This document shows positions 1,391-36,715 of a DNA stretch of 64,000 bases, one piece after another; positions within the stretch are counted from its first letter, which is position 1, and every line of letters starts with the position of its first letter. Origin of the DNA: Sulfolobales archaeon (lineage in GTDB: Archaea; Thermoproteota; Thermoprotei_A; Sulfolobales; NBVN01); NCBI GenBank assembly GCA_038841535.1, contig JAWBTQ010000002.1, forward strand, positions 77,463-141,462. Direction: 5' to 3'. The notes below the pieces were generated by a model. The model made no database searches. It was not told the origin of the DNA and worked only from the letters and a program-made list of their open reading frames with translations. The position numbers and the translations under genes are program-made.

Positions 1391-2185
1391 CTAAGACGAT
1401 ACTCTAAGGTCTCTTTCGATTATTTCAGCAACTCTCTTACCTGAGAGTAGCATGGAGCTAAATATCGGGCCCATTCTCGGGAGTCCGTATAGTGCGGCAA
1501 CAGACATCCCAGACACGTATAGCCCGGGTAGCACTCTACCAGTGTTTTCTACTACCAAGCTCTCGGACTTCTCTGAATAAGCTGCTTTCTCACCTGCTAG
1601 CACTAGGTTCACACCGGGGACTTTTTTCGATACCACTCGTAGTACTTCTGCATCATGACCTGTAGCATCAACTACCGCCCTACTTCTAACGAATAGGGGG
1701 TCAACGTGTAGTCCTGACAGGACTGCGGCACTCCATTGAAGCACCACACCCTCGACTCTAATAGGACTCTCTCTATAGATTACGTCCTCAACGTGAAGTC
1801 CGTGAATTATCTTAGCACCCGCATCGATAGCGCCCACAGCTAGTTTTGCCATAAGCTCTGAAGCGTCTAAGATGTAGAGGTTCTCTTCATCGTCTCTCGA
1901 GTACTTGACCTTAAACTCATCTAGTATCTGGGTAACTCTATCGTCAACAACTATCTTGTGTAAGAGCATGCCTCCTCCTCCTATTCCTCCACCAAAACTA
2001 AGCCTTCGCTCGAAGATGACCACTTTAAATCCTCTTTCAGCTAAGTACTTAGCTGCCGTCATACCTGAAGGACCCGCACCGACTACTGCGACATCAACTT
2101 TAGCTAGGTCTAGCCAATCTCGAGCTGTATTTCTCCAGATCGCCCTAGAGATCCTCTCCTCAAGGCTCCTCATAGCCGTCACCAA
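1391..2185 (-). CDS. thi4: thiamine thiazole synthase, Thi4 family
   Basis: [17 protein letters not shown] dinucleotide-binding motif, [28 protein letters not shown]. The residue aligned with the yeast suicide Cys is Thr, followed by GHD as in methanococcal sulfide-dependent Thi4. The track start is TTG 2185; in-frame ATG 2173 is equally plausible. Confidence 0.9.
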
Positions 2186-12262: not shown

Positions 12263-13228
12263 TCAGCTTTCAACGCACATCAACGCTTTTTTCACAGCCT
12301 TAACGGCACTTGAGGCGAAGACGTACATTACCGGTTCAATTCCTATACCACCTGTATCAGCTATGGCATCAGGAGCTTTATCTAGAATCTCCATTGCCTT
12401 CTCGAGCTCACTAAAAAGCTCTCGCTCAGAAGTGTGGGGACCAACTTTAACTACACTATACCCCTTAGTGACAAGTCTTTGAATACACTCATTATTGTAC
12501 TTAATAACTATGACAGACTTTATGCTGGGGAACCTCTTCATTACGTTTAGCAGTACGCTGGCCGTGTGTCTACTACCTCCTCTAGTTGGATCACCTGCTG
12601 CTACAACTTTGTTATACACCCGGACTATCCTACCCGCAAATCCGACAACATCTCTAAAATCAACTGCTTCTGGTGGGGCTGAGGCAATGTTCATTCCCAC
12701 CTCTGGGACAAGCTCGTGGCCTCTGGGATGAAGACTTAAGACCTCATAAGCAGTCTTAACTTCCTCGACGTAGGGATCCGCAATTTCTTCAAAAAGCACG
12801 CGGCACACACCGCAATCCAGAGGTATAGTGGGAGTAGTCTTCCTATGGATACAGCACATGAGACCTCTTTTCAATATCGAGTTAATGTAGTTACCTAATA
12901 GCTTTAGATACTCAAGGTAGTTACCATTAACTAGCTTCTCTACTAAAGCGTCAGTAATTCTGACAACATCATCTACGTCTAGACCTAACTCCCGGAGGTC
13001 TTCTAAGAGTTTAGGTATGGGAACGCTTAAATACCTACTTACCATAGGTTGTGAAATACCCAACAATCTGGAGATCCTCATCTGACTCAGACCTTTATCG
13101 CTCAGTTTATGAGATAAGATCCCCCTAAACACCGGAATAACTAGCTCACTAACTAGCTCGTACGGCAGCAAACTCCCCCCGAAAACCGCTTCTACACCGA
13201 AAGAAAAAAAGACAAAGAGATCGACCAA
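12263..13228 (-). CDS. thiR: ThiR-like regulator: HTH + CHCC module fused to a ThiN (thiamine-phosphate synthase-like) domain
   Basis: N-terminus: MRISRLLGISQPMVSRYL HTH and CCIHRKTTPTIPLDCGVC. C-terminus: EVGMNIASAPPEAVDFRDVVGFAGRIVRV...GGSRHTASVLLNVMKRFPSIKSVIVIKY...DTGGIGIEPVMYVF, matching the ThiN domain pattern. TTG start at 13228; a later TTG is possible. Confidence 0.7.
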   Translation of the reverse strand: MVDLFVFFSFGVEAVFGGSLLPYELVSELVIPVFRGILSHKLSDKGLSQMRISRLLGISQPMVSRYLSVPIPKLLEDLRELGLDVDDVVRITDALVEKLVNGNYLEYLKLLGNYINSILKRGLMCCIHRKTTPTIPLDCGVCRVLFEEIADPYVEEVKTAYEVLSLHPRGHELVPEVGMNIASAPPEAVDFRDVVGFAGRIVRVYNKVVAAGDPTRGGSRHTASVLLNVMKRFPSIKSVIVIKYNNECIQRLVTKGYSVVKVGPHTSERELFSELEKAMEILDKAPDAIADTGGIGIEPVMYVFASSAVKAVKKALMCVES

Positions 13229-28274: not shown

Positions 28275-29816
28275 ATGGCGAAGGTCTTGAAGCCCATTGG
28301 TGTAGTTGCTAGTGGATCAAAGTCGTTTTACGCCCCCGTATTGGTGTATAAGGACGCTGAGAGGTTTCTTCGTGAGGAGTCTCTTGCGTTTATTAGAGAT
28401 AGAGTAACGGGTAAGCAGTACCTCGGTTTAATAAGGTGGTTATCTAAAATAGACCCCCTCTTGCCTGCGACCCAGAGGTCCGGAGTAGTGGATAACCCTA
28501 GACTTGCGGAAATAGCTACGAACATTCCATTCGAGACCTCATACGTCAGGATCATCGGGGAAATAAGTAGCGGAAGGCTTGAGCCTCCGGTAGACCCACC
28601 AACTCCAAGGAGCGAGGTGTTGCTTGTCGAGTCCCCCGAGGACCTCGCGCTCGAAGTTGGTGAGGGACTGACAATAGGGGAGCACAAGTACTCGGGGGTC
28701 AAGATACCCCTGAACCCCAGGTACCTGCCCTATCACATTGGGGTAGTTGGGGCAACCGGGACCGGCAAGTCGAGGCTTGTGAAGGCCCTCATAGACGAGG
28801 TGCTAGCCAAGACGGATTGGAGAGTGATAGTGTTCGACCACTCCGGGGTAGACTACGTATCTTACTACCCTCACAACGTAGTAGACGCATCCCTAGTAAT
28901 GCCCGACCCCATAACCCTCGGCGAGCTAATATCAGAGAGGTCCATGCTTGAGAGACAGGAAGAGTACATACTGGCAACAGTGTATGCTTACATAGCTTCT
29001 TTCAAGAGAACTTCTGCTACAGCAACAACCCACGGCCCTCAAAGGGTCGATAAAGCTCTTAGCTCATCTGGAACCTCGTTCGCCTGTAGCATGAGATTTA
29101 CCGAGGGCTTAGACTTCACAAATGCCGAGAAGCTTATGACCGAGATAACGTGGGACATACACTTGTTCCGTAAGTGCGTCGAGAGGGTAGGCAAAGAGTT
29201 TGAAGCCAAGGACCCAACCGTAGCTAAGATGAGTTTACTCGTAGGGACCTACTCCAAGGAGCTGATAGAGTCTCTTAACGAAAAGAAGCTCACGGCCCGT
29301 GACGCAGTCGATCGAGCTCTAAGGGAGAGGTTGGTCGTTATTGACTTGAGTAGCGTCGAGATAGTCGTGAGGAGATATATAGTGAAATCCGTTTTAGACG
29401 AGCTGTGGAAACTCGTAGACGAGCGCGGAGAGAGGCCCAGGACGCTGGTGATAGTAGACGAAGCACACAACTACGCCTGCATGGGGTGTGGAGCCTCTTT
29501 ACGTTCGATTGAGAGAACCGCGAGAGAGGGGAGGAAATGGGAGATCGGGTTGGTGCTGGCTAGCCAGAGGACAATCGACTTCTCGACTGACATCAGAAAC
29601 AACATAAACACGTTCTACTTCAGCAGGCTACAGACCCCCGGAGACTTCGAGAATCTTCGGGGAGTCTTAGACTTAGGGGGCTTGGGTCCGGAGTCCCTGT
29701 CAGTTCTCGGAATACGAGAGTTCTTCTTCGCCGGCCTCGGGAATCCTCTAAGATTTCCAATACTCATTCGGGTGAGGGAAGTTGGGGAGCCAACTCTGGG
29801 GGGAAGAGCAGCCTAA
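28275..29816 (+). CDS. HerA-like (DUF87/FtsK-HerA superfamily) ATPase
   Basis: 513 aa. An N-terminal barrel-like region (IGVVASGS...YLGLIRW...YVRIIGEI), Walker A HIGVVGATGTGKS (28749-28772), Walker B TLVIVDEAHNY (from 29445), and LVLASQRTIDF. Confidence 0.8.
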   Translation: MAKVLKPIGVVASGSKSFYAPVLVYKDAERFLREESLAFIRDRVTGKQYLGLIRWLSKIDPLLPATQRSGVVDNPRLAEIATNIPFETSYVRIIGEISSGRLEPPVDPPTPRSEVLLVESPEDLALEVGEGLTIGEHKYSGVKIPLNPRYLPYHIGVVGATGTGKSRLVKALIDEVLAKTDWRVIVFDHSGVDYVSYYPHNVVDASLVMPDPITLGELISERSMLERQEEYILATVYAYIASFKRTSATATTHGPQRVDKALSSSGTSFACSMRFTEGLDFTNAEKLMTEITWDIHLFRKCVERVGKEFEAKDPTVAKMSLLVGTYSKELIESLNEKKLTARDAVDRALRERLVVIDLSSVEIVVRRYIVKSVLDELWKLVDERGERPRTLVIVDEAHNYACMGCGASLRSIERTAREGRKWEIGLVLASQRTIDFSTDIRNNINTFYFSRLQTPGDFENLRGVLDLGGLGPESLSVLGIREFFFAGLGNPLRFPILIRVREVGEPTLGGRAA

Positions 29817-30948
29817 AACGGAGGGAGCCGTTGGTATAGCCCCCGAGCTACTAGGGGAAGCTCTTGACTCCGTAGTTATTAAGATAGATAGAGTCGCCTC
29901 AATAGCTGGGATAGCATCTAGAGCTAGAGAGAGATTGGTCTCGAGCGGTGCCATAAGGAGAGCCACCTACATTGGAGATAAGTGCTTCTTAAGCATAGAC
30001 TCGAGCTATACTTCTCCCCCTCTAGAGCTTGTCGGGGGATATCTCGGCCTCATCTTCGTAGTCAGCGTCCTCTACGGCAAGGAGTGTCGCTCTGCCTTAT
30101 CGGAGTTTGAGGTCGTGGCTCACGCAACGTACGATCCGACTAGGGATTTAACTAGGGTCGAAGCCAGAAGACTCGAGAGGGAGAAAGCCATAGAGGCCCT
30201 AAGGAGGAAGTCTAGAGGGGAAGTCTACTTCGACATCATCATACTCGACGGTGAGGTTCTACCCAGACTGTCGCCAAGGCTCCTCGCTGGAGCTGGCGTA
30301 GAATCAGAGAAAGCTAGAGAGCTAGTGAGACTAACTGACACCATGGTCCTTCTGGCCGAAAAAACTAAAACTCCGGTCGTGGGAGTACTCAAAAGGAGCT
30401 ACTCCAAGGATGCACTAGCAGTGCTCGGGTACTTCCTAGACGTCGACTTAAGCGATAGAGCCTTCATGACGTACGTTTTAGAGCCCGGGGAATTCGCTGT
30501 CATAGGGGACTATAGGTCCATAGCATCTGCTTACCAGAGTCTAGTTGACGACTACGGAGATGCTTACCCTAGAGAGGTTTCGCCTGCTAGGTACAGGCTC
30601 GCTTGGCTAAAGCAGATGCTTAGGTATTCAAACATAGCCGATAGGATGAAAATGGCGTTCTACAGACCCCATTCAGGGATCAGCACTACTGCAGTCAAGA
30701 TAGAGTACGACTCGGTAGACCTAAGTGACGAGGAGCTAGTCTCATCAGTAACGTCTGTGAGCGAGGCGACGGGCTTCCCGGCGCCAGTGGATTACGCCGA
30801 TACCTTATCGCAGATACCGAGTGACGTTAGGTTTACATTGTACCAGCTAGTGCTACAGAAGATAAGTGAAGCTAATCCGGACGTAGCGCAGAAGTTATTT
30901 ACGCTGGTAAACCCGCAGAAACTCGCCTCGATAGGGTTGAGGACGTAG
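29782..30948 (+). CDS. NurA-like nuclease domain protein
   Basis: 388 aa. The ordered acidic motifs FLSIDSS, RRLEREKA, IIILDGEVLPRL and C-terminal PAPVDYADTLSQI follow the NurA pattern. The TTG start overlaps the HerA-like gene by 35 nt, and the start is uncertain. Confidence 0.6.
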   Translation: MGSQLWGEEQPKTEGAVGIAPELLGEALDSVVIKIDRVASIAGIASRARERLVSSGAIRRATYIGDKCFLSIDSSYTSPPLELVGGYLGLIFVVSVLYGKECRSALSEFEVVAHATYDPTRDLTRVEARRLEREKAIEALRRKSRGEVYFDIIILDGEVLPRLSPRLLAGAGVESEKARELVRLTDTMVLLAEKTKTPVVGVLKRSYSKDALAVLGYFLDVDLSDRAFMTYVLEPGEFAVIGDYRSIASAYQSLVDDYGDAYPREVSPARYRLAWLKQMLRYSNIADRMKMAFYRPHSGISTTAVKIEYDSVDLSDEELVSSVTSVSEATGFPAPVDYADTLSQIPSDVRFTLYQLVLQKISEANPDVAQKLFTLVNPQKLASIGLRT

Positions 30949-31578: not shown

Positions 31579-32706
31579 TCAGCACACCCTATAATACCTA
31601 ACCTTTCGCCTTCCCTTGGACTTAAACTCGCTGCACACTTTACCCATCTCCTCCATCGACTCTAGGACCTTATAGATTCCGCGAAGGGAATAAGCGGGAA
31701 AAACCTTCCATACTTCGTACGCCGTAGCCTCCCCACTTCTCTCTAGTACGCGAATTATCTCTTTACGCACATCTTTATCTGCCTTCCTGCTAGCCGAAAG
31801 AGGTCTAAAGCCCATAGTTACGACTGCTATGGAGTTCCCCATGTTTTCGGCTACAGTGTAGGCAGATGCGGATAGAGACTTCGTTTTGACTCCACTTTTC
31901 CAGAGCCTCACCAAGGAGTTAAACGCTTCATCCCTACTTATCTCGACGAGCTTGATCGACCTAGCGAACTCGGGTAGAATGAGGTTCTTCACTCCTTTAA
32001 TCGAGGTAGCCACTACTTCGTAGGATGCGTTTACACCCACATCCTCTAGGTCTCTAAAGCCCTTCCAGATCGAGTAAGCTAGCAATCCTGTCCTCGCTGG
32101 AACAACTACTCTATCTACTCTAAGCCTCCTCTCATATATCTCGAGAGCGATAGTTTTCAGCCCCTCCACAGTGAGAGGGGTTGCGTAGCCTAATAGGGAG
32201 GCCTTCCCATTCTCGCCGAAGACCAGCTTCACATTCCCGGTTCGCAACAGTATGTCTACATCTAAGTAGTCAAGCGATAAAGGATCCTCCACGACTACTT
32301 CGACAGAGGAGACTCCGTTAAGGTAGTAAGCGAGGGAGTAGGTGAAGTCTTCCTCGAACTTCGTTCTAATGGTTACGAATCCCTTTGAGAGTACGTAGCT
32401 CGCTATGACGGAGGAAGCTCTATCAGAGTAAGTGCCTGTGGGATTGTAACGCTCGTTTTTGACTAGCACTCCTCCAACAGTGTTTACTGGAGTCAACCCC
32501 TCTCCCTTCGAGATAACCTTCTCTAATTTAGGTAGCACAGACCTGTATCTCCAAATGCCCGGCCCTGCTCTTTCCACTCTAAACACTCCATACGGGTACT
32601 TGAAGACCGTAAGCCACCCACAACTCGGGCAGGTAAAGACCTCTTCGCTGTACGCTCTTCCACACTTTCCGCAGACCAGCAATTCCTGAGCTACTGCCGT
32701 ACTCAA
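31579..32706 (-). CDS. threonine-synthase-fold (PLP fold type II) protein lacking the PLP lysine, with C-terminal winged HTH
   Basis: 375 aa. Zinc ribbon CGKCG...CPSCG, GIWRYRSVLP, GEGLTPV, and ERYNPTGTYSDR, where the consensus is NPTGSFKDR (Lys to Ser94, codon at 32425-32427). The C-terminal ~65 aa (31582-31779) have a wHTH pattern. It starts 11 nt after the pdxT stop. Confidence 0.75.
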   Translation of the reverse strand: MSTAVAQELLVCGKCGRAYSEEVFTCPSCGWLTVFKYPYGVFRVERAGPGIWRYRSVLPKLEKVISKGEGLTPVNTVGGVLVKNERYNPTGTYSDRASSVIASYVLSKGFVTIRTKFEEDFTYSLAYYLNGVSSVEVVVEDPLSLDYLDVDILLRTGNVKLVFGENGKASLLGYATPLTVEGLKTIALEIYERRLRVDRVVVPARTGLLAYSIWKGFRDLEDVGVNASYEVVATSIKGVKNLILPEFARSIKLVEISRDEAFNSLVRLWKSGVKTKSLSASAYTVAENMGNSIAVVTMGFRPLSASRKADKDVRKEIIRVLERSGEATAYEVWKVFPAYSLRGIYKVLESMEEMGKVCSEFKSKGRRKVRYYRVC

Positions 32707-32717
32707 GGCTAGGACCG

Positions 32718-33326
32718 CTACTTCCTCACTAACGAGACCATGTACTCGTACAGTCTTGTGTCTCCTGAGATCTCTGGATGGAACGTTACAGCGAGAACAT
32801 TATTCTGGATAGCCACCGTACCCACTTTACCGATATCTGGGTGGTCGAGATAGCCCACTATCCTCGCATCACCCCAGGCTTCAACTATCGCAGGCGCTCT
32901 TATGAAGACCGCCCTCACAGTGCCTATTCCATCGACGAAGACCTCCGTTTCAAAAGACTCTCTTTGTCGGCCGAAGGCATTTCTTCGTATAGCTATATTC
33001 ATCAACTCGAGGAGAGGTTGCCCTGTCTCGCCAACCACTCTATCTACTACTTTCTTAGCTAGGAGTACTGCCCCAGCGCAAGTCCCCATTACAGGCTTTC
33101 CTTCTCTCGCTAGGTCTGCGATAGCTACGTCCATTCCCGTGACTCTCATTAAACTACCTATGGCGGTAGACTCGCCCCCGGGTATGATCAGAGTATCTAT
33201 ACCTACTAAGTCTCTAGGTGACTTAACCGGTACAGCCCTAACCCCGCTGAGCTCGGAAAGCAACTGCAGGTGCTCTAGGAAGTCTCCCTGGAGGCTCAGC
33301 ACTCCGACTACTACCAAGTTACTCAC
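32718..33326 (-). CDS. pdxT: pyridoxal 5'-phosphate synthase glutaminase subunit
   Basis: 202 aa. [40 protein letters not shown]. Confidence 0.9.
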
Positions 33327-34332
33327 CCCTCACTTGCATGAGCTCCTCCGGCTTCAGCCTCCTCACGTCCATCCCCGTCATTGAGGACCTCTCGGAAACC
33401 ATTTTCTGAGCTTCGGCAACGATCTCCGGGTCGTCGTAATAGGTAGTAGCCAGTACTATAGCTCTAGCCCTAGCCTCCGGGTCTGAGCTCTTGAAGATCC
33501 CAGAGCCCACGAAGACCCCATCGGCCCCCAACCACATCATGAGCGCAGCATCTGCCGGTGTAGCGATGCCTCCAGCAGCAAAGTTTACGACGGGCAGTCT
33601 ACCGAGTCTCGCAGTAAGTAGAACTAGTTCATAGGGAGTCTTGTTCTCCTTCGCGTATACCCAAAGAGCCTCGATGTCTCTCGATGTGTAGTATCCTTTC
33701 AGTGTTGCGATATCTCTATTAACGAGCTTCATGTGCTTTACTGCCTCCGCAACGTTACCCGTACCGGGCTCTCCCTTCGTTCTTATCATAGACGCTCCCT
33801 CAAATATTCTCCTCAGTGCTTCCGGGAGGTTTCTTGCTCCGTTCACGAACGGCACTCTAAACTCCCACTTGTTAATGTGGGCTCTCTCGTCTACTGGAGT
33901 GAGGACCTCGCTCTCATCTATGAGGTCTACACCTACCTCTTCGAGCAGCCTTGCCTCCTCGGTGTGCCCTATTCTGCACTTAGCAGATACGGGTATTGTA
34001 ATAACATCCGTAACTCTCTGAATGACGTCCAACCCAGCCGTTCGGGCAACACCTCCAGATACCCTGACGTCGTAGGGGAGCTTATCGAGGACCATGACAC
34101 CCACAGCACCAGCGTCTTCAGCTATTTCAGCCTGCTTCTCGCTAGTGACATCCATTATTACTCCTCCCTTAAGCATTGACACGAAGCCTAGCTTAACCAG
34201 AGTACCCCCTAACTTAATAAGCGGGAGCGAACCACCCTCCGCAGAAGACCTATCCCTAAGTTCCAGTAGTTGGTATATCAAGTCGCGAAGCTTCTCGATA
34301 AATACGTAAGAGTCAGTGAGCTTCACTTGCAC
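33319..34332 (-). CDS. pdxS: pyridoxal 5'-phosphate synthase lyase subunit
   Basis: 337 aa. [83 protein letters not shown] start; overlaps pdxT by 8 nt. Confidence 0.95.
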
Positions 34333-34372
34333 ACCGCCAGTATAGCTTTCGGCCTCCCTGAAATAACTGTTA

Positions 34373-34384
34373 TTGAACGTTCAA
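34373..34384. promoter_or_regulatory. perfect 12-bp palindrome TTGAACGTTCAA upstream of pdxS
   Basis: Lies 41-52 nt upstream of the pdxS GTG (34332) and immediately upstream of an A/T-rich TTATTT (coding strand, 34361-34366) that could be the TATA box. Candidate operator only. Confidence 0.3.
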
Positions 34385-34534: not shown

Positions 34535-35401
34535 GTGCTTGTAATCCTGTCAGTACTAGCATTAGCTCTCAGAGAGATTCGCCGCTCGAGACTTGCTAAG
34601 GCTGTTGTTGCTGTTAAAAAAATGCTGGTTACTGGTGAGGAGGGAGTCTCCTTTTCTAGACCTCTGAACGCTGAGCTCGGCAGGCTAACGATTGTTGGGA
34701 TAGTTGGCAGGAAAGGTTACAGAGCCCTCGCAGAGTTCACACCTTCATCTAAACTCCTGCTCGGCAGTATTCGCTACCGTGACCTATGCTCAGGGGGTTA
34801 CCTACTCGCCGTAGACAGTGTAGGTAACGGCTACTTGAACACGCCAGCCGTCAGGATTTTGATAAAACCATTCGAAAACGTTCTTGTCGCATGTTTAGAC
34901 CCGTCGGAAGTCCATACAGTAGCGAAGTCCATTGAAATAGTTGAGGAGAATTCGACAGCAAAAAGCGTTATTCACGTCTCCGGCGGTAGGTACTCAGCTA
35001 GAGTCTCATGGGAATCTTTCGTGCTGCCCTCCTGGAGGCTAGTCTACGAGCCGATGAGAGGGTCCTACAGAATCGTGAAAGAACCCGGGGTTGGAGTAAG
35101 AGTAAGGAGCGTGCGCGTAGAAGTCTGTGCTAAGTCTTTAAGCTACTTCACTCCCGAGATCTGCGCTACCATTACTAGGCTGGCAAAAGTGGATAGTGAA
35201 GCCTCCGGCACACTAGAAGGACTAATAGGTAGGAGGCTCGTGGTTGTGCACATGGCTTACGTAAACCTCCTCGACCTAGCTAGAGAGCTCGGGATAGCTA
35301 GATACCCACACATATCTGGGTACTCTAGCGGCTATATTAAAGCTAAGTTAACTATGGAGGTACCGATGGCTAAGAACATAGTAAGGGAAGAACCGGTCTA
35401 G
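34535..35401 (+). CDS. hypothetical protein, possible N-terminal membrane anchor
   Basis: 288-aa ORF with no motif I recognise. The reading frame is open from 34487 and encodes more hydrophobic residues upstream of GTG 34535, without a canonical start codon. Confidence 0.45.
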   Translation: MLVILSVLALALREIRRSRLAKAVVAVKKMLVTGEEGVSFSRPLNAELGRLTIVGIVGRKGYRALAEFTPSSKLLLGSIRYRDLCSGGYLLAVDSVGNGYLNTPAVRILIKPFENVLVACLDPSEVHTVAKSIEIVEENSTAKSVIHVSGGRYSARVSWESFVLPSWRLVYEPMRGSYRIVKEPGVGVRVRSVRVEVCAKSLSYFTPEICATITRLAKVDSEASGTLEGLIGRRLVVVHMAYVNLLDLARELGIARYPHISGYSSGYIKAKLTMEVPMAKNIVREEPV

Positions 35402-35476: not shown

Positions 35477-36715
35477 TCATTTAACTAGGTTCTCAGCTAC
35501 TTTAGGAAGTGAGACCTTTCGCAGCATTCGCGATACTACCGGAAGGAAGACTGTTGCTGTAGTAGTCAGTAAAGCAGAGCCTGCCACTGTCGCGAGGTAG
35601 GTCTTAGTGGTGTCCCTGGTTAGTCCACCTAATGCCGGGCCGACTATGGATGATACCATTACAACCGAGATCTGCATACCTATGAGCCTCCCAACCCTCC
35701 TGTTACCGAAGAGAGCTGGGACGATGCTCATGTGTGCTACTGGCTCGCCTCCGAACGCAAATAGTCTTATGAGTAGAGCGAGTACAGCTGGCCACGCATA
35801 AGCGTGGGGCAGTAGACTGACAGCATAAGATGATGCGGCTTGAGTAGCGTATAGAGCTAATATGGTCTTCAAAATACCTACTCTAGTAGCTAGTAGCCCC
35901 CAGAAGAACCCGCCCGCAGTTTGTAGAATGCCCGAAACTCCCATTACCGCAGGAGTGTATACTGCCAAGGCTTCCTCACTGGGCAAGCCGGAGGATTCGT
36001 AGATCTCTGAGATTATCGGGGCGAGGTAGCTTATCAACATAGTCGATGAGGTAGCTACTAAGAAGATCGGCACTAGCATAGTTAAATACGCTCTGCGGCT
36101 CGCATGGTCAGTATATGACTCTCTAGATCTCTGCTTAGGCGGGACCATGCCTCTGTATAGTGCTGCGCAGACCATAGTCACCGAGCTAGTGACAAGCGAC
36201 GCAGTAAAGAAAGTGTAGAACGGGCCTGTCCTTGTCAGAAGGTACGTGATTATGGGAGACCAGAGAGTGAGCGCCATATATGACCCGCTCTGGACTACAG
36301 CTAGAGCTAGCTGAGGTCTAGACGGTAGAGAGCTTATGACCGCAGGGTTTACCGACGTAGAGACGGCTGAGAAAACAAGTCCATAGGCTACTGCCGAAGC
36401 GTACCAGTACCACATGGCCTCGCTCCACGGTTTTGACCTCATGGGTAGTACCAATATCCCTGAGGTGAGTTGCGATAGTGCACCAATAGCTAGGAGGATT
36501 GAGGGACCTCTTGCATCGTAGAGCGCTCCAAACGCCGAGGAGGTGAATATTCCTACACCGCTCGATATTATTATGAATGCTGCTACCTGCGTCACGCTGT
36601 CGACTCCGTAGAGACTCATCAAGTGCTGGTAAAACATAGAGATACTGCTCCTCCAGCCTACAGCGAGTAGGGCCAGAATACCCGCTACCACGTAGCTATA
36701 GCTTCTCTTGACCAC
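35477..36715 (-). CDS. major facilitator superfamily transporter
   Basis: 412 aa, ~12 hydrophobic segments in a 6+6 arrangement with a central basic loop (PPKQRSRESYTDHASRR). Confidence 0.8.
   Translation of the reverse strand: MVKRSYSYVVAGILALLAVGWRSSISMFYQHLMSLYGVDSVTQVAAFIIISSGVGIFTSSAFGALYDARGPSILLAIGALSQLTSGILVLPMRSKPWSEAMWYWYASAVAYGLVFSAVSTSVNPAVISSLPSRPQLALAVVQSGSYMALTLWSPIITYLLTRTGPFYTFFTASLVTSSVTMVCAALYRGMVPPKQRSRESYTDHASRRAYLTMLVPIFLVATSSTMLISYLAPIISEIYESSGLPSEEALAVYTPAVMGVSGILQTAGGFFWGLLATRVGILKTILALYATQAASSYAVSLLPHAYAWPAVLALLIRLFAFGGEPVAHMSIVPALFGNRRVGRLIGMQISVVMVSSIVGPALGGLTRDTTKTYLATVAGSALLTTTATVFLPVVSRMLRKVSLPKVAENLVK

Follow-up and report, generated by a model that had tools for sequence, protein, structure and literature searches.

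A threonine-synthase-like protein that lacks the PLP lysine and ends in a winged helix, encoded beside pdxST, as a candidate vitamin B6-sensing regulator in Thermoproteota

We analysed a stretch of 64,000 nucleotides from a Sulfolobales archaeon (GenBank assembly GCA_038841535.1, contig JAWBTQ010000002.1, positions 77,463 to 141,462 of the forward strand), hereafter called the window, on whose minus strand the genes of the two subunits of pyridoxal 5'-phosphate (PLP) synthase, pdxS and pdxT, are followed by an open reading frame (ORF) of 375 aa. An earlier note, made by a model from the letters of the sequence, had described the three genes as packed into one unit, and had proposed that the last of them encodes a threonine-synthase-fold protein that has lost its PLP lysine, has gained a winged helix, and may sense or regulate vitamin B6. 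The packing is as it was described: the coordinates agree (Table 1), pdxS and pdxT overlap by 8 nt, and the TAG stop of pdxT is separated by 11 nt from the TTG start of the 375-aa ORF. PdxS matches PF01680 (3.2e-91) and NF003215 (457 bits against a cut-off of 395), and its N-terminal extension is kept among orthologues (tblastn alignments running from query residues 1–3 to 337); PdxT matches PF01174 (4e-48) and TIGR03800 (170 bits against a cut-off of 105.6). Here, we refer to the product of the 375-aa ORF, together with its family members in other genomes, as X.

The layout of X is that of an archaeal threonine synthase (ThrC), as the note had stated, on the strength of its zinc ribbon, its PALP domain, and its structural matches. 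The four cysteine positions of the ribbon are kept in 73–78 of 82 X family members, and the ribbon is common to the archaeal ThrC models PRK05638, PRK06450, and PRK08197, matches to which begin at residues 10–11 of the protein and at positions 3–9 of the models. The domain that follows matches PALP (PF00291) with 51.8 bits against a cut-off of 35 (9.5e-14). The top NCBIfam matches of the window protein are threonine synthases only, with scores 4- to 7-fold under the cut-offs (105 bits against 421 for PRK05638, 69 against 358 for PRK08329, 54 against 301 for PRK06450, and 25 against 167 for TIGR00260). An AlphaFold 2 (AF2) model made with 34 homologues in the input has a predicted local distance difference test score (pLDDT) of 88.9. 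When the whole model was compared with the Protein Data Bank using Foldseek, the best matches were 6nmx, 2zsj, and 1v7c (E ~3e-14, identity 17–20%, template modelling [TM] score ~0.6), and the first 17 matches were threonine synthases, bar one cysteate synthase, CapA2.

The residue that holds PLP covalently in this fold is replaced. Ser94, in the context KNERYNPTGTY-S-DRASS, aligns with the Schiff-base lysine of NPTGSFKDR in HMMER alignments to the solved ThrC chains 2zsj, 6cgq, and 1uim, and its codon is TCT, as had been claimed. An intact PLP lysine was sought by alignment and was found in none of 82 family members (alanine in 48, serine in 25, valine in 4, other residues in the rest, lysine never) and in none of the ~40 family representatives at 50% identity; over both sets, the residues at this position are A, S, V, I, M, G, or Y. 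Around it, the stretch K-x-E-x-x-N-P-T-G-[ST]-Y-x-D-R-A-S is invariant in the 82 sequences.

The remodelling extends over the rest of the former active site. Replacements were read from a profile alignment to the ThrC structures 1uim, 6cgq, and 2zsj, and the roles of the ThrC residues in contacting cofactor and substrate we take to be those in the Thermus thermophilus ThrC structures. Next to the lysine position (K61 of ThrC, A or S94 in X), F60 has become Y93. The loop S84-T-G-N87 is replaced by (E)E-D-F in the X family and by (E)EDFT in the window protein, and the ASTGN-type loop is thus unrecognizable, as the note had remarked. N154/S155 correspond to x-Y174 and R160 to T179; the phosphate loop G186-N-A-G-N190 reads A-E/R-T-G-L-L in the family (ARTGLL in the window protein); and the glutamate of ‘EPxSA’ has become K276. 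In the C-terminal ‘TG.GLKD’ motif, T-x-G persists as T297-x-G299. Invariant or nearly so in the X family are Y93, D95, R96, S98, S103, D120, F121, S124, and Y128, as well as Y174, E181, K184, E189, E192, P203, T206, G207, and L209. To judge from these alignments, catalysis and substrate binding are lost in X; because so many other columns are invariant, X appears to be a conserved pseudoenzyme rather than the product of a decaying gene, with the family under strong purifying selection for a different pocket.

That X is nevertheless a real enzyme (be it a divergent threonine synthase or some other member of fold-type II, working on a B6-related substrate with another lysine or with no PLP at all) we regard as highly improbable. 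Such an enzyme would fit the above-threshold PALP match, the threonine synthases among the best profile and structure matches, and the public annotations of X homologues, which read ‘threonine synthase’ or ‘PLP-dependent enzyme’. However, the Schiff-base lysine is absent and the cofactor- and substrate-contacting residues are replaced throughout the family, and every ThrC equivalog cut-off is missed by the wide margin given above. The invariant lysines that are left, K83, K184, and K215, occupy positions that are conserved in ThrC too and are not new. Moreover, bona fide ThrC paralogues, with NPTGSFKDR and SSGNAG, coexist with X, a few genes away from it in two of the loci described below (L053 and L064).

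The winged helix that had been suspected in the last ~65 aa is borne out by a high-confidence model and by its matches to DNA-binding winged helix-turn-helix (wHTH) structures. Residues 307–375 of the AF2 model form a helix, a short strand, two further helices, and a β-hairpin (DSSP assigns helices at 307–324, 329–335, and 341–353 and strands at 357–364 and 367–374). Modelled separately, the C-terminal domain has a pLDDT of 91; its Foldseek matches include winged helices of the ArsR type and those of PadR (4ejo, 3hhh, and 5x11, the last being Bacillus subtilis PadR with operator DNA), LmrR, TFE-alpha, TA0346, and Phr, on which it superposes with TM 0.7–0.83. The Pfam matches are all below threshold: PadR (PF03551) scores 14 bits on the window domain against a gathering score of 27 (E=0.049), and among 30 X family members PadR was matched in 17 (best 6.9e-5), TrmB in 17, and FUR in 9. 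The recognition helix and wing contribute T328, A329, Y330, W333, L341, R342, Y345, K346, and R367 to the most highly conserved residues of the protein. Two cysteines, C358 and C375 (the last residue), are situated on the antiparallel strands of the wing hairpin (window 31582–31653) and are kept in 67 and 69 of 82 family members, respectively. Stabilizing disulfides are common in hyperthermophilic Thermoproteota; the pair could form such a bond, or DNA binding could be switched through it by redox state or by metal.

A search of 5.8 billion proteins returned the X family as ~95 clusters at 90% identity (~40 at 50% identity), with lengths of 340–390 aa and 38–82% identity. The family is spread over Thermoproteota, with members in Sulfolobales (in the GTDB sense), Acidilobaceae, Ignisphaera, Desulfurococcaceae, Pyrodictiaceae (Hyperthermus butylicus), Fervidicoccaceae, and Conexivisphaera. 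The linkage to pdxST seen in the window is conserved in related genomes: when one genome per GTDB species was taken, 76 X family loci were obtained (loci are designated by L numbers), and X touches pdxST in 43 of them, as pdxS-pdxT-X with short gaps in 36 and as X-pdxS-pdxT in 7. The cultured Hyperthermus butylicus has the former order, with X at about 1046681–1047841 of CP000493.1; the Fervidicoccus fontis orthologue of X is AFH42776.1. Among loci fetched via PdxT homologues, X-pdxS-pdxT was found in Acidilobaceae, Thermofilum, and Nezhaarchaeales and pdxS-pdxT-X in a Thermosphaera aggregans-type contig. Since the adjacency persists through altered gene order, a functional link between X and pdxST is indicated. 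The other 33 loci have no pdxST within the available flank, which is incomplete in 17 of them. Among these 33, an energy-coupling factor (ECF) module, consisting of a PF07155-like S component, a fused double ATPase, and a T component, lies directly 3' of X in L027, L039, and L162, and a major facilitator superfamily (MFS) permease of the aromatic-acid/H+ symporter type lies directly 5' of X on the same strand in L029, L037, and L038.

A second constant of these neighbourhoods is a perfect 12-bp palindrome, TTGAACGTTCAA, upstream of pdxS. In the 64-kb window, it is the sole match at ≤2 mismatches. It is followed by TAACAG, where a TFB recognition element (BRE) would be, and then by TTATTT, a putative element of the pdxS promoter. 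In the pdxS upstream regions of other loci, the palindrome is found at the same place, and nothing else is in common. Across 80 fetched loci (1.17 Mb in total), we counted 24 perfect copies and 18 with one mismatch, compared with a chance expectation of ~0.07 perfect copies (1.17 Mb / 4^12). All 41 pdxST-linked loci for which upstream DNA is available carry a copy (≤2 mismatches) ~45–75 nt before pdxS, and every perfect copy is located ~45–75 nt 5' of pdxS, of a linked transporter gene, or of X itself (L046). Perfect copies are also present in the Acidilobaceae, Thermosphaera-type, Thermofilum, and Nezhaarchaeales loci.

Alignment of 48 sites yields the consensus tA-TTGAACGTTCAA-(t/c)AA, in which the 12 bases are near-invariant, the flanks are unconserved, and the sequence farther upstream is random, with an A/T block (TTAA or TTAT) at +18 to +21 from the motif start and the start codon at about +50. 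With this spacing, the promoter would have a very short leader, and its BRE would be abutted or overlapped by the palindrome. The exact 16-mer TATTGAACGTTCAATA was found in at least 80 metagenome contigs; among the matches listed, six encode PdxS or X, all six in the same arrangement, and most of the others are AT-rich contigs of marine or soil origin in which the match is due to chance. Taxonomically, loci with the palindrome range over Sulfolobales (in the GTDB sense), Desulfurococcaceae, Pyrodictiaceae, Thermofilum, Thermoproteus, Methanomethylicales, Nezhaarchaeales, and metagenome-assembled genomes labelled Nitrososphaeria; it was not found in the Thermoplasmata locus L208.

Table 1. Positions of the genes, domains, and sites discussed (window coordinates unless a locus is named)
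Feature	Position	Strand	Remarks
pdxS, PLP synthase lyase subunit	33319-34332	-	337 aa; GTG start; first operon gene
pdxT, PLP synthase glutaminase subunit	32718-33326	-	202 aa
X, lysine-less threonine-synthase-like protein with C-terminal winged helix	31579-32706	-	375 aa; TTG start
Cys4 zinc ribbon (C12, C15, C26, C29) of X, N-terminal	32620-32673	-	Family conservation
Fold-type II (PALP, ThrC-like) domain of X, residues 66-286	31849-32511	-	PF00291, Foldseek; presumed ligand-sensing domain
Ser94 codon of X (TCT)	32425-32427	-	Position of PLP Schiff-base lysine
Winged helix-turn-helix of X, C-terminal, residues 307-375	31582-31788	-	Recognition helix ~SLRGIYKVLESME; wing with C358 and C375
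Candidate operator TTGAACGTTCAA, perfect 12-bp palindrome	34373-34384	.	Near edge 40 nt and far edge 52 nt 5' of pdxS GTG
TATA-like box TTATTT	34361-34366	-	6 nt 3' of palindrome
ECF modules with TTGAACGTTCAA, adjoining X	L027 1582-4308 (S component 1582-2331); L039 5485-8286; L162 1744-4470		
MFS genes with TTGAACGTTCAA, adjoining X	L029 2595-3779; L037 8743-10008		

The distribution of the palindrome follows promoters. In loci of the order X-pdxS-pdxT, it sits past the stop codon of X and ahead of pdxS, and it therefore tracks the regulated promoter rather than the X gene. Where transporters adjoin X, it precedes the ECF S gene (L027, L039, and L162) or the MFS gene that heads an MFS-X pair (L029, L037, and L038). 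A palindrome lying 5' of both biosynthesis and transporter genes and co-localized with X in distant genomes is the pattern by which comparative genomics has defined vitamin-responsive regulons such as those of ThiR, RbkR, and PdxR. In three Thermoproteus assemblies, pdxS-pdxT has no X nearby and carries TTGAACGTTCCA 45 nt upstream; in other Thermoproteales (Vulcanisaeta thermophila and Thermocladium), X is encoded at unlinked positions. A site without an adjacent X in the former, together with an unlinked X in relatives, fits a trans-acting factor.

These observations bear on another explanation, by which X would be an accessory of PLP synthase that binds, buffers, or delivers PLP, the winged helix would serve protein contacts, and some other factor would bind TTGAACGTTCAA. 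The Thermoproteus pdxS with a site and no X nearby, the many X family members that are unlinked to any site, and the capacity of winged helices to mediate protein contacts (e.g. TFE-alpha, one of the fold matches) would agree with it. Nonetheless, X is the one neighbour that the site keeps across three unrelated settings (pdxST, ECF, and MFS), and an accessory of PLP synthase would have no reason to adjoin importers where the flank has no pdxST. It is also at odds with how extremely the recognition helix and wing are conserved and with the lack of a site at the window's other vitamin regulator, a ThiR-like gene, at thi4, and at thiC in L026. We judge an accessory role to be quite unlikely, and the conserved palindrome favours a regulator over a PLP buffer.

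We also asked whether ThiR itself binds the palindrome, since Thermoproteus has thiC and pdxS in divergent orientation and since the window has a ThiR-like gene, which the earlier note had already pointed out (12263–13228, minus strand; ThiN PF10120, 1.9e-46). ThiR is an unlikely candidate, given that the only site in the window is at pdxS and that no palindrome was found at the promoters of the ThiR-like gene and of thi4 (1391–2185, minus strand) in the window or of thiC in L026. The ThiR-like protein consists of an N-terminal region of ~155 aa and the ThiN domain, and thi4 encodes a thiazole synthase (PF01946, 5.8e-76). The divergent thiC of the Thermoproteus sp. assemblies (L207 1602–2890, identical to L209 7602–8890) had been missed by gene calling, and its split into two ORFs (336 aa and 84 aa) points to a frameshift or to misassembly. 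The thiC/pdxS intergenic region of Thermoproteus also has, beside the pdxS operator, a 13-nt palindrome, ATAAGTAACTTAT; this second palindrome might be a ThiR-type site.

In our view, X is somewhat more probably than otherwise a dimeric, B6-sensing transcription factor that controls the synthesis and uptake of vitamin B6. The parts of this reading can be held with different confidence: that X binds the palindrome appears likely from the comparative evidence; if it does, a B6 vitamer would with good probability be the effector; and if both are granted, we lean modestly towards repression as the outcome. X is expected to be dimeric because ThrC-fold proteins are dimers and the candidate operator is palindromic, and two winged helices would suit the site because about one helical turn separates its outer bases. 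The two C-terminal winged helices of a dimer would bind tA-TTGAACGTTCAA-tA, abutting or overlapping the BRE/TATA region of the pdxS promoter. X would thereby control the pdxS-pdxT-X operon and hence, in that gene order, its own synthesis; in other genomes, it would control the ECF-type and MFS-type genes, which are probable B6 importers.

The sensor would be an enzyme-derived domain that no longer performs catalysis, with the Schiff-base lysine, the O3'-binding asparagine, and the phosphate-holding arginine, asparagine, and serine replaced. The retained, conserved pocket, comprising NPTG[ST]Y-x-DR, T206-G207 of the phosphate loop, and T297 of the TG.G motif, would bind a B6 vitamer, most likely PLP, reversibly and non-covalently. 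A B6 vitamer is the obvious effector because the sensor domain descends from a PLP-dependent enzyme, and loss of the lysine would make binding reversible, as a sensor needs. ECF systems are typically vitamin importers, and a regulon of PLP synthase plus ECF-type and MFS transporter genes points to end-product control by a vitamin, of the kind known from ThiR, RbkR, and bacterial PdxR. The simplest logic would be end-product repression, in which vitamer-bound X on the operator blocks TFB/TBP and, at low B6, X leaves the operator and synthesis and uptake are switched on. By analogy with PdxR, X could alternatively be an activator that is antagonized by PLP. None of the checks on the lysine, the winged helix, and the linkage contradicts the regulator that the earlier note had proposed, and the conserved palindrome strengthens the proposal considerably.

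Several observations weigh against a B6-responsive repressor. Binding of PLP is not assured, as both the Gly-rich phosphate loop and the O3' asparagine are altered and the acidic residues E119 and D120 now line the former ASTGN loop. The palindrome is upstream of and abuts the TATA box instead of covering the start site, a position that fits activation too. DNA binding by X is proposed by guilt by association, and its B6 responsiveness and the sign of regulation are predicted from comparative genomics. X is away from pdxST in 33 of the 76 loci, and 27 of these lack the palindrome within ±10 kb, including those of Acidilobus, Caldisphaera, and Hestiella as well as L003 and L004; in the loci just named, a variant operator was not found in or near promoters at ≤1 mismatch to the 10-bp core. 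Finally, a GC-rich archaeal pdxS-pdxT locus (L216/L217) has no X nearby and no palindrome, from which it also follows that the palindrome is no generic part of pdxS promoters.

Another possibility, which we consider unlikely, is that X is the factor for the palindrome but responds to something other than a B6 vitamer, coupling B6 supply to amino-acid demand; the effector could then be O-phosphohomoserine, threonine, homoserine, a PLP-amino-acid adduct, or a substrate of PLP synthase such as ribose-5-phosphate. The partial destruction of the canonical PLP contacts (the lysine, Asn87, and the Gly-rich loop) would be in keeping with this, and the wider superfamily of lysine-less ThrC-wHTH proteins is not linked to pdxST in the one locus examined (P0096), which suggests that the scaffold can sense other things. 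On the other hand, the ThrC ligands of the O-phosphohomoserine phosphate, R160 and N154/S155, are replaced as well, and a cofactor synthase combined with ECF-type and MFS transporters is the classic picture of end-product vitamin control.

The wider superfamily came to light in an exhaustive HMMER scan of 1.84 billion representatives, which gave 99 matches at E≤1e-30. The closest sequence relative of X is PRK05638/NF004170, a ‘threonine synthase’ of ~440–500 aa in which ThrC is followed by a C-terminal PadR-type wHTH. X has in common with these proteins the zinc ribbon, the ThrC core, and a homologous wHTH with Y-x-[IV]-W-K/R; in contrast, it scores 105 against the PRK05638 cut-off of 421, is aligned to model positions 3–240 only, and is 70–100 aa shorter. 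PRK05638-like proteins also keep the Gly-rich phosphate loop and the S/T-x-G-N loop, both of which are remodelled in X. When 147 of 150 listed representatives were classed by simple motif patterns, 23 of the 25 that retain the lysine lacked the Y-x-[IV]-W wHTH signature, and of the 82 with the signature and an alignable motif only 2 keep the lysine, the other 80 having I, R, A, V, M, L, S, T, or other residues. The fusion of ThrC and wHTH probably came first, and the lysine was then lost as the protein became a regulator; the pdxST-linked clade is probably a shortened, further remodelled offshoot, and a regulator superfamily has probably been systematically misannotated as ‘threonine synthase’.

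Proteins P0261–P0372 and the genes at L079 9980–11389 and L081 6001–7416 represent this much larger archaeal group of ThrC-wHTH proteins (420–500 aa), from which the lysine is almost always missing. Two candidates for further members of the same regulon were rejected: a PRK05638-type ThrC-PadR protein (P0096), which is not encoded beside pdxST, and a PRK05638-type match in L079, the lysine of which is intact and near which a half-site lies inside an ORF. More tentatively, and with somewhat more doubt than belief, we suggest that the X clade is the tip of an unrecognized archaeal transcription factor superfamily of non-catalytic ThrC sensors (~130 clusters at 50% identity) and governs the first archaeal B6 regulon, with an operator that marks missing B6 importers (ECF S component and MFS).

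Other genes near X, pdxS, and their counterparts are recorded here for completeness. A 288-aa ORF without a Pfam match (window 34535–35401, plus strand) is divergent from pdxS, with which it has a 202-nt intergenic region in common, and beyond it lies an MFS transporter gene (PF07690, 8.7e-20; 35477–36715, minus strand) without a palindrome of its own. In the window, X is adjoined by genes of a HerA-like ATPase (DUF87) and a NurA nuclease (28275–30948, plus strand); a NurA homologue is also beside X in L003 and L004 (L004 11130–12317), and in Vulcanisaeta a Rad50-Mre11-HerA cluster is divergent from X (L212 308–5886). This recurring HerA/NurA neighbourhood is probably residual synteny. In nine loci of Acidilobus, Caldisphaera, and Hestiella (L055, L057–L059, L065, L066, L070, L071, and L076), X is followed by a co-oriented gene for a ThermoDBP-related protein (PF10015, 2.9e-24; e.g. 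L076 11137–11655), and in L065, L066, and L076 a gene for a 364-aa multi-pass membrane protein, without a Pfam or NCBIfam match, overlaps X at its 5' side. A fragmented or frameshifted X lies beside intact pdxST in L214 (1792–2800; Nezhaarchaeales, with a perfect site) and in L069 (10001–11037; with a two-mismatch site); these broken copies may reflect gene decay or assembly error.

If X is a B6-responsive regulator, a new family of transcription factors would have converged on the solution of MocR/PdxR from another PLP fold, providing a case of a cofactor-dependent enzyme that was turned into a cofactor sensor after its covalent attachment site was lost. The ECF and MFS transporters next to X and TTGAACGTTCAA are candidate archaeal vitamin B6 importers. 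A survey from 2023, on how Bacteria and Archaea make and salvage PLP, stresses that in many organisms the B6 transporters have yet to be identified (PMC9997740). The palindrome would thus offer a route to archaeal B6 importers and to the prediction of B6 auxotrophy in uncultured Thermoproteota, and as a 12-bp operator it would be testable in the cultured Hyperthermus butylicus, Fervidicoccus fontis, Thermosphaera aggregans, and Vulcanisaeta thermophila. The annotation of lysine-less ThrC-wHTH proteins now named threonine synthase or PLP-dependent enzyme would also be corrected.

To our knowledge, archaea have no known regulator of vitamin B6 metabolism. The literature that was searched, outside which most subscription journals lie, contained no mention of an archaeal B6 regulator, of a ThrC-HTH regulator, or of the palindrome. 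The nearest functional parallel is the bacterial PdxR, a MocR protein with a GntR-type wHTH and a fold-type I aminotransferase domain that controls pdxST in Corynebacterium, Streptococcus, Bacillus, and Listeria. Like PdxR, X combines a PLP-enzyme fold as the presumed sensor with a winged helix, is encoded beside pdxST, and is probably autoregulated; PdxR regulons can likewise include putative B6 transporters (PMC5320631). Unlike PdxR, to which it is not homologous, X has a sensor of fold-type II (ThrC-like) in place of fold-type I, and its wHTH is C-terminal and PadR/TrmB-like instead of N-terminal and of the GntR type. X also has an N-terminal zinc ribbon, works in the setting of an archaeal TBP/TFB promoter, and lacks the Schiff-base lysine through which PdxR binds PLP, and its candidate operator is one compact palindrome, in contrast to the repeats typical of MocR. 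The window protein has no GntR or Aminotran_1_2 match and shows none of the features by which MocR/PdxR proteins are recognized.

Among archaeal vitamin regulators, ThiR combines an HTH with ThiN, and RbkR combines a riboflavin kinase with a wHTH (PMC5397151). Like these, X is archaeal, joins a domain derived from an enzyme of vitamin metabolism to a DNA-binding domain, and has palindromic (candidate) operators near the promoter, with a predicted regulon of biosynthesis and uptake genes; unlike these, it has a different sensor fold, DNA-binding domain, and vitamin. ThiR and RbkR descend from enzymes of the pathway that they regulate, whereas X descends from an enzyme that merely uses the cofactor. 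With bona fide ThrC (1UIM/1V7C, 2ZSJ, and 6CGQ), X has in common the fold and the motifs GEG.TP, K.E..NPTGS, EG.KT, W/xKGF, and TxG, but it lacks the catalytic lysine and the substrate-phosphate arginine, carries an extra wHTH, and is linked to pdxST instead of to threonine genes. On these comparisons, X would be an enzyme-derived, cofactor-sensing transcription factor that is analogous to, and not homologous with, MocR/PdxR.

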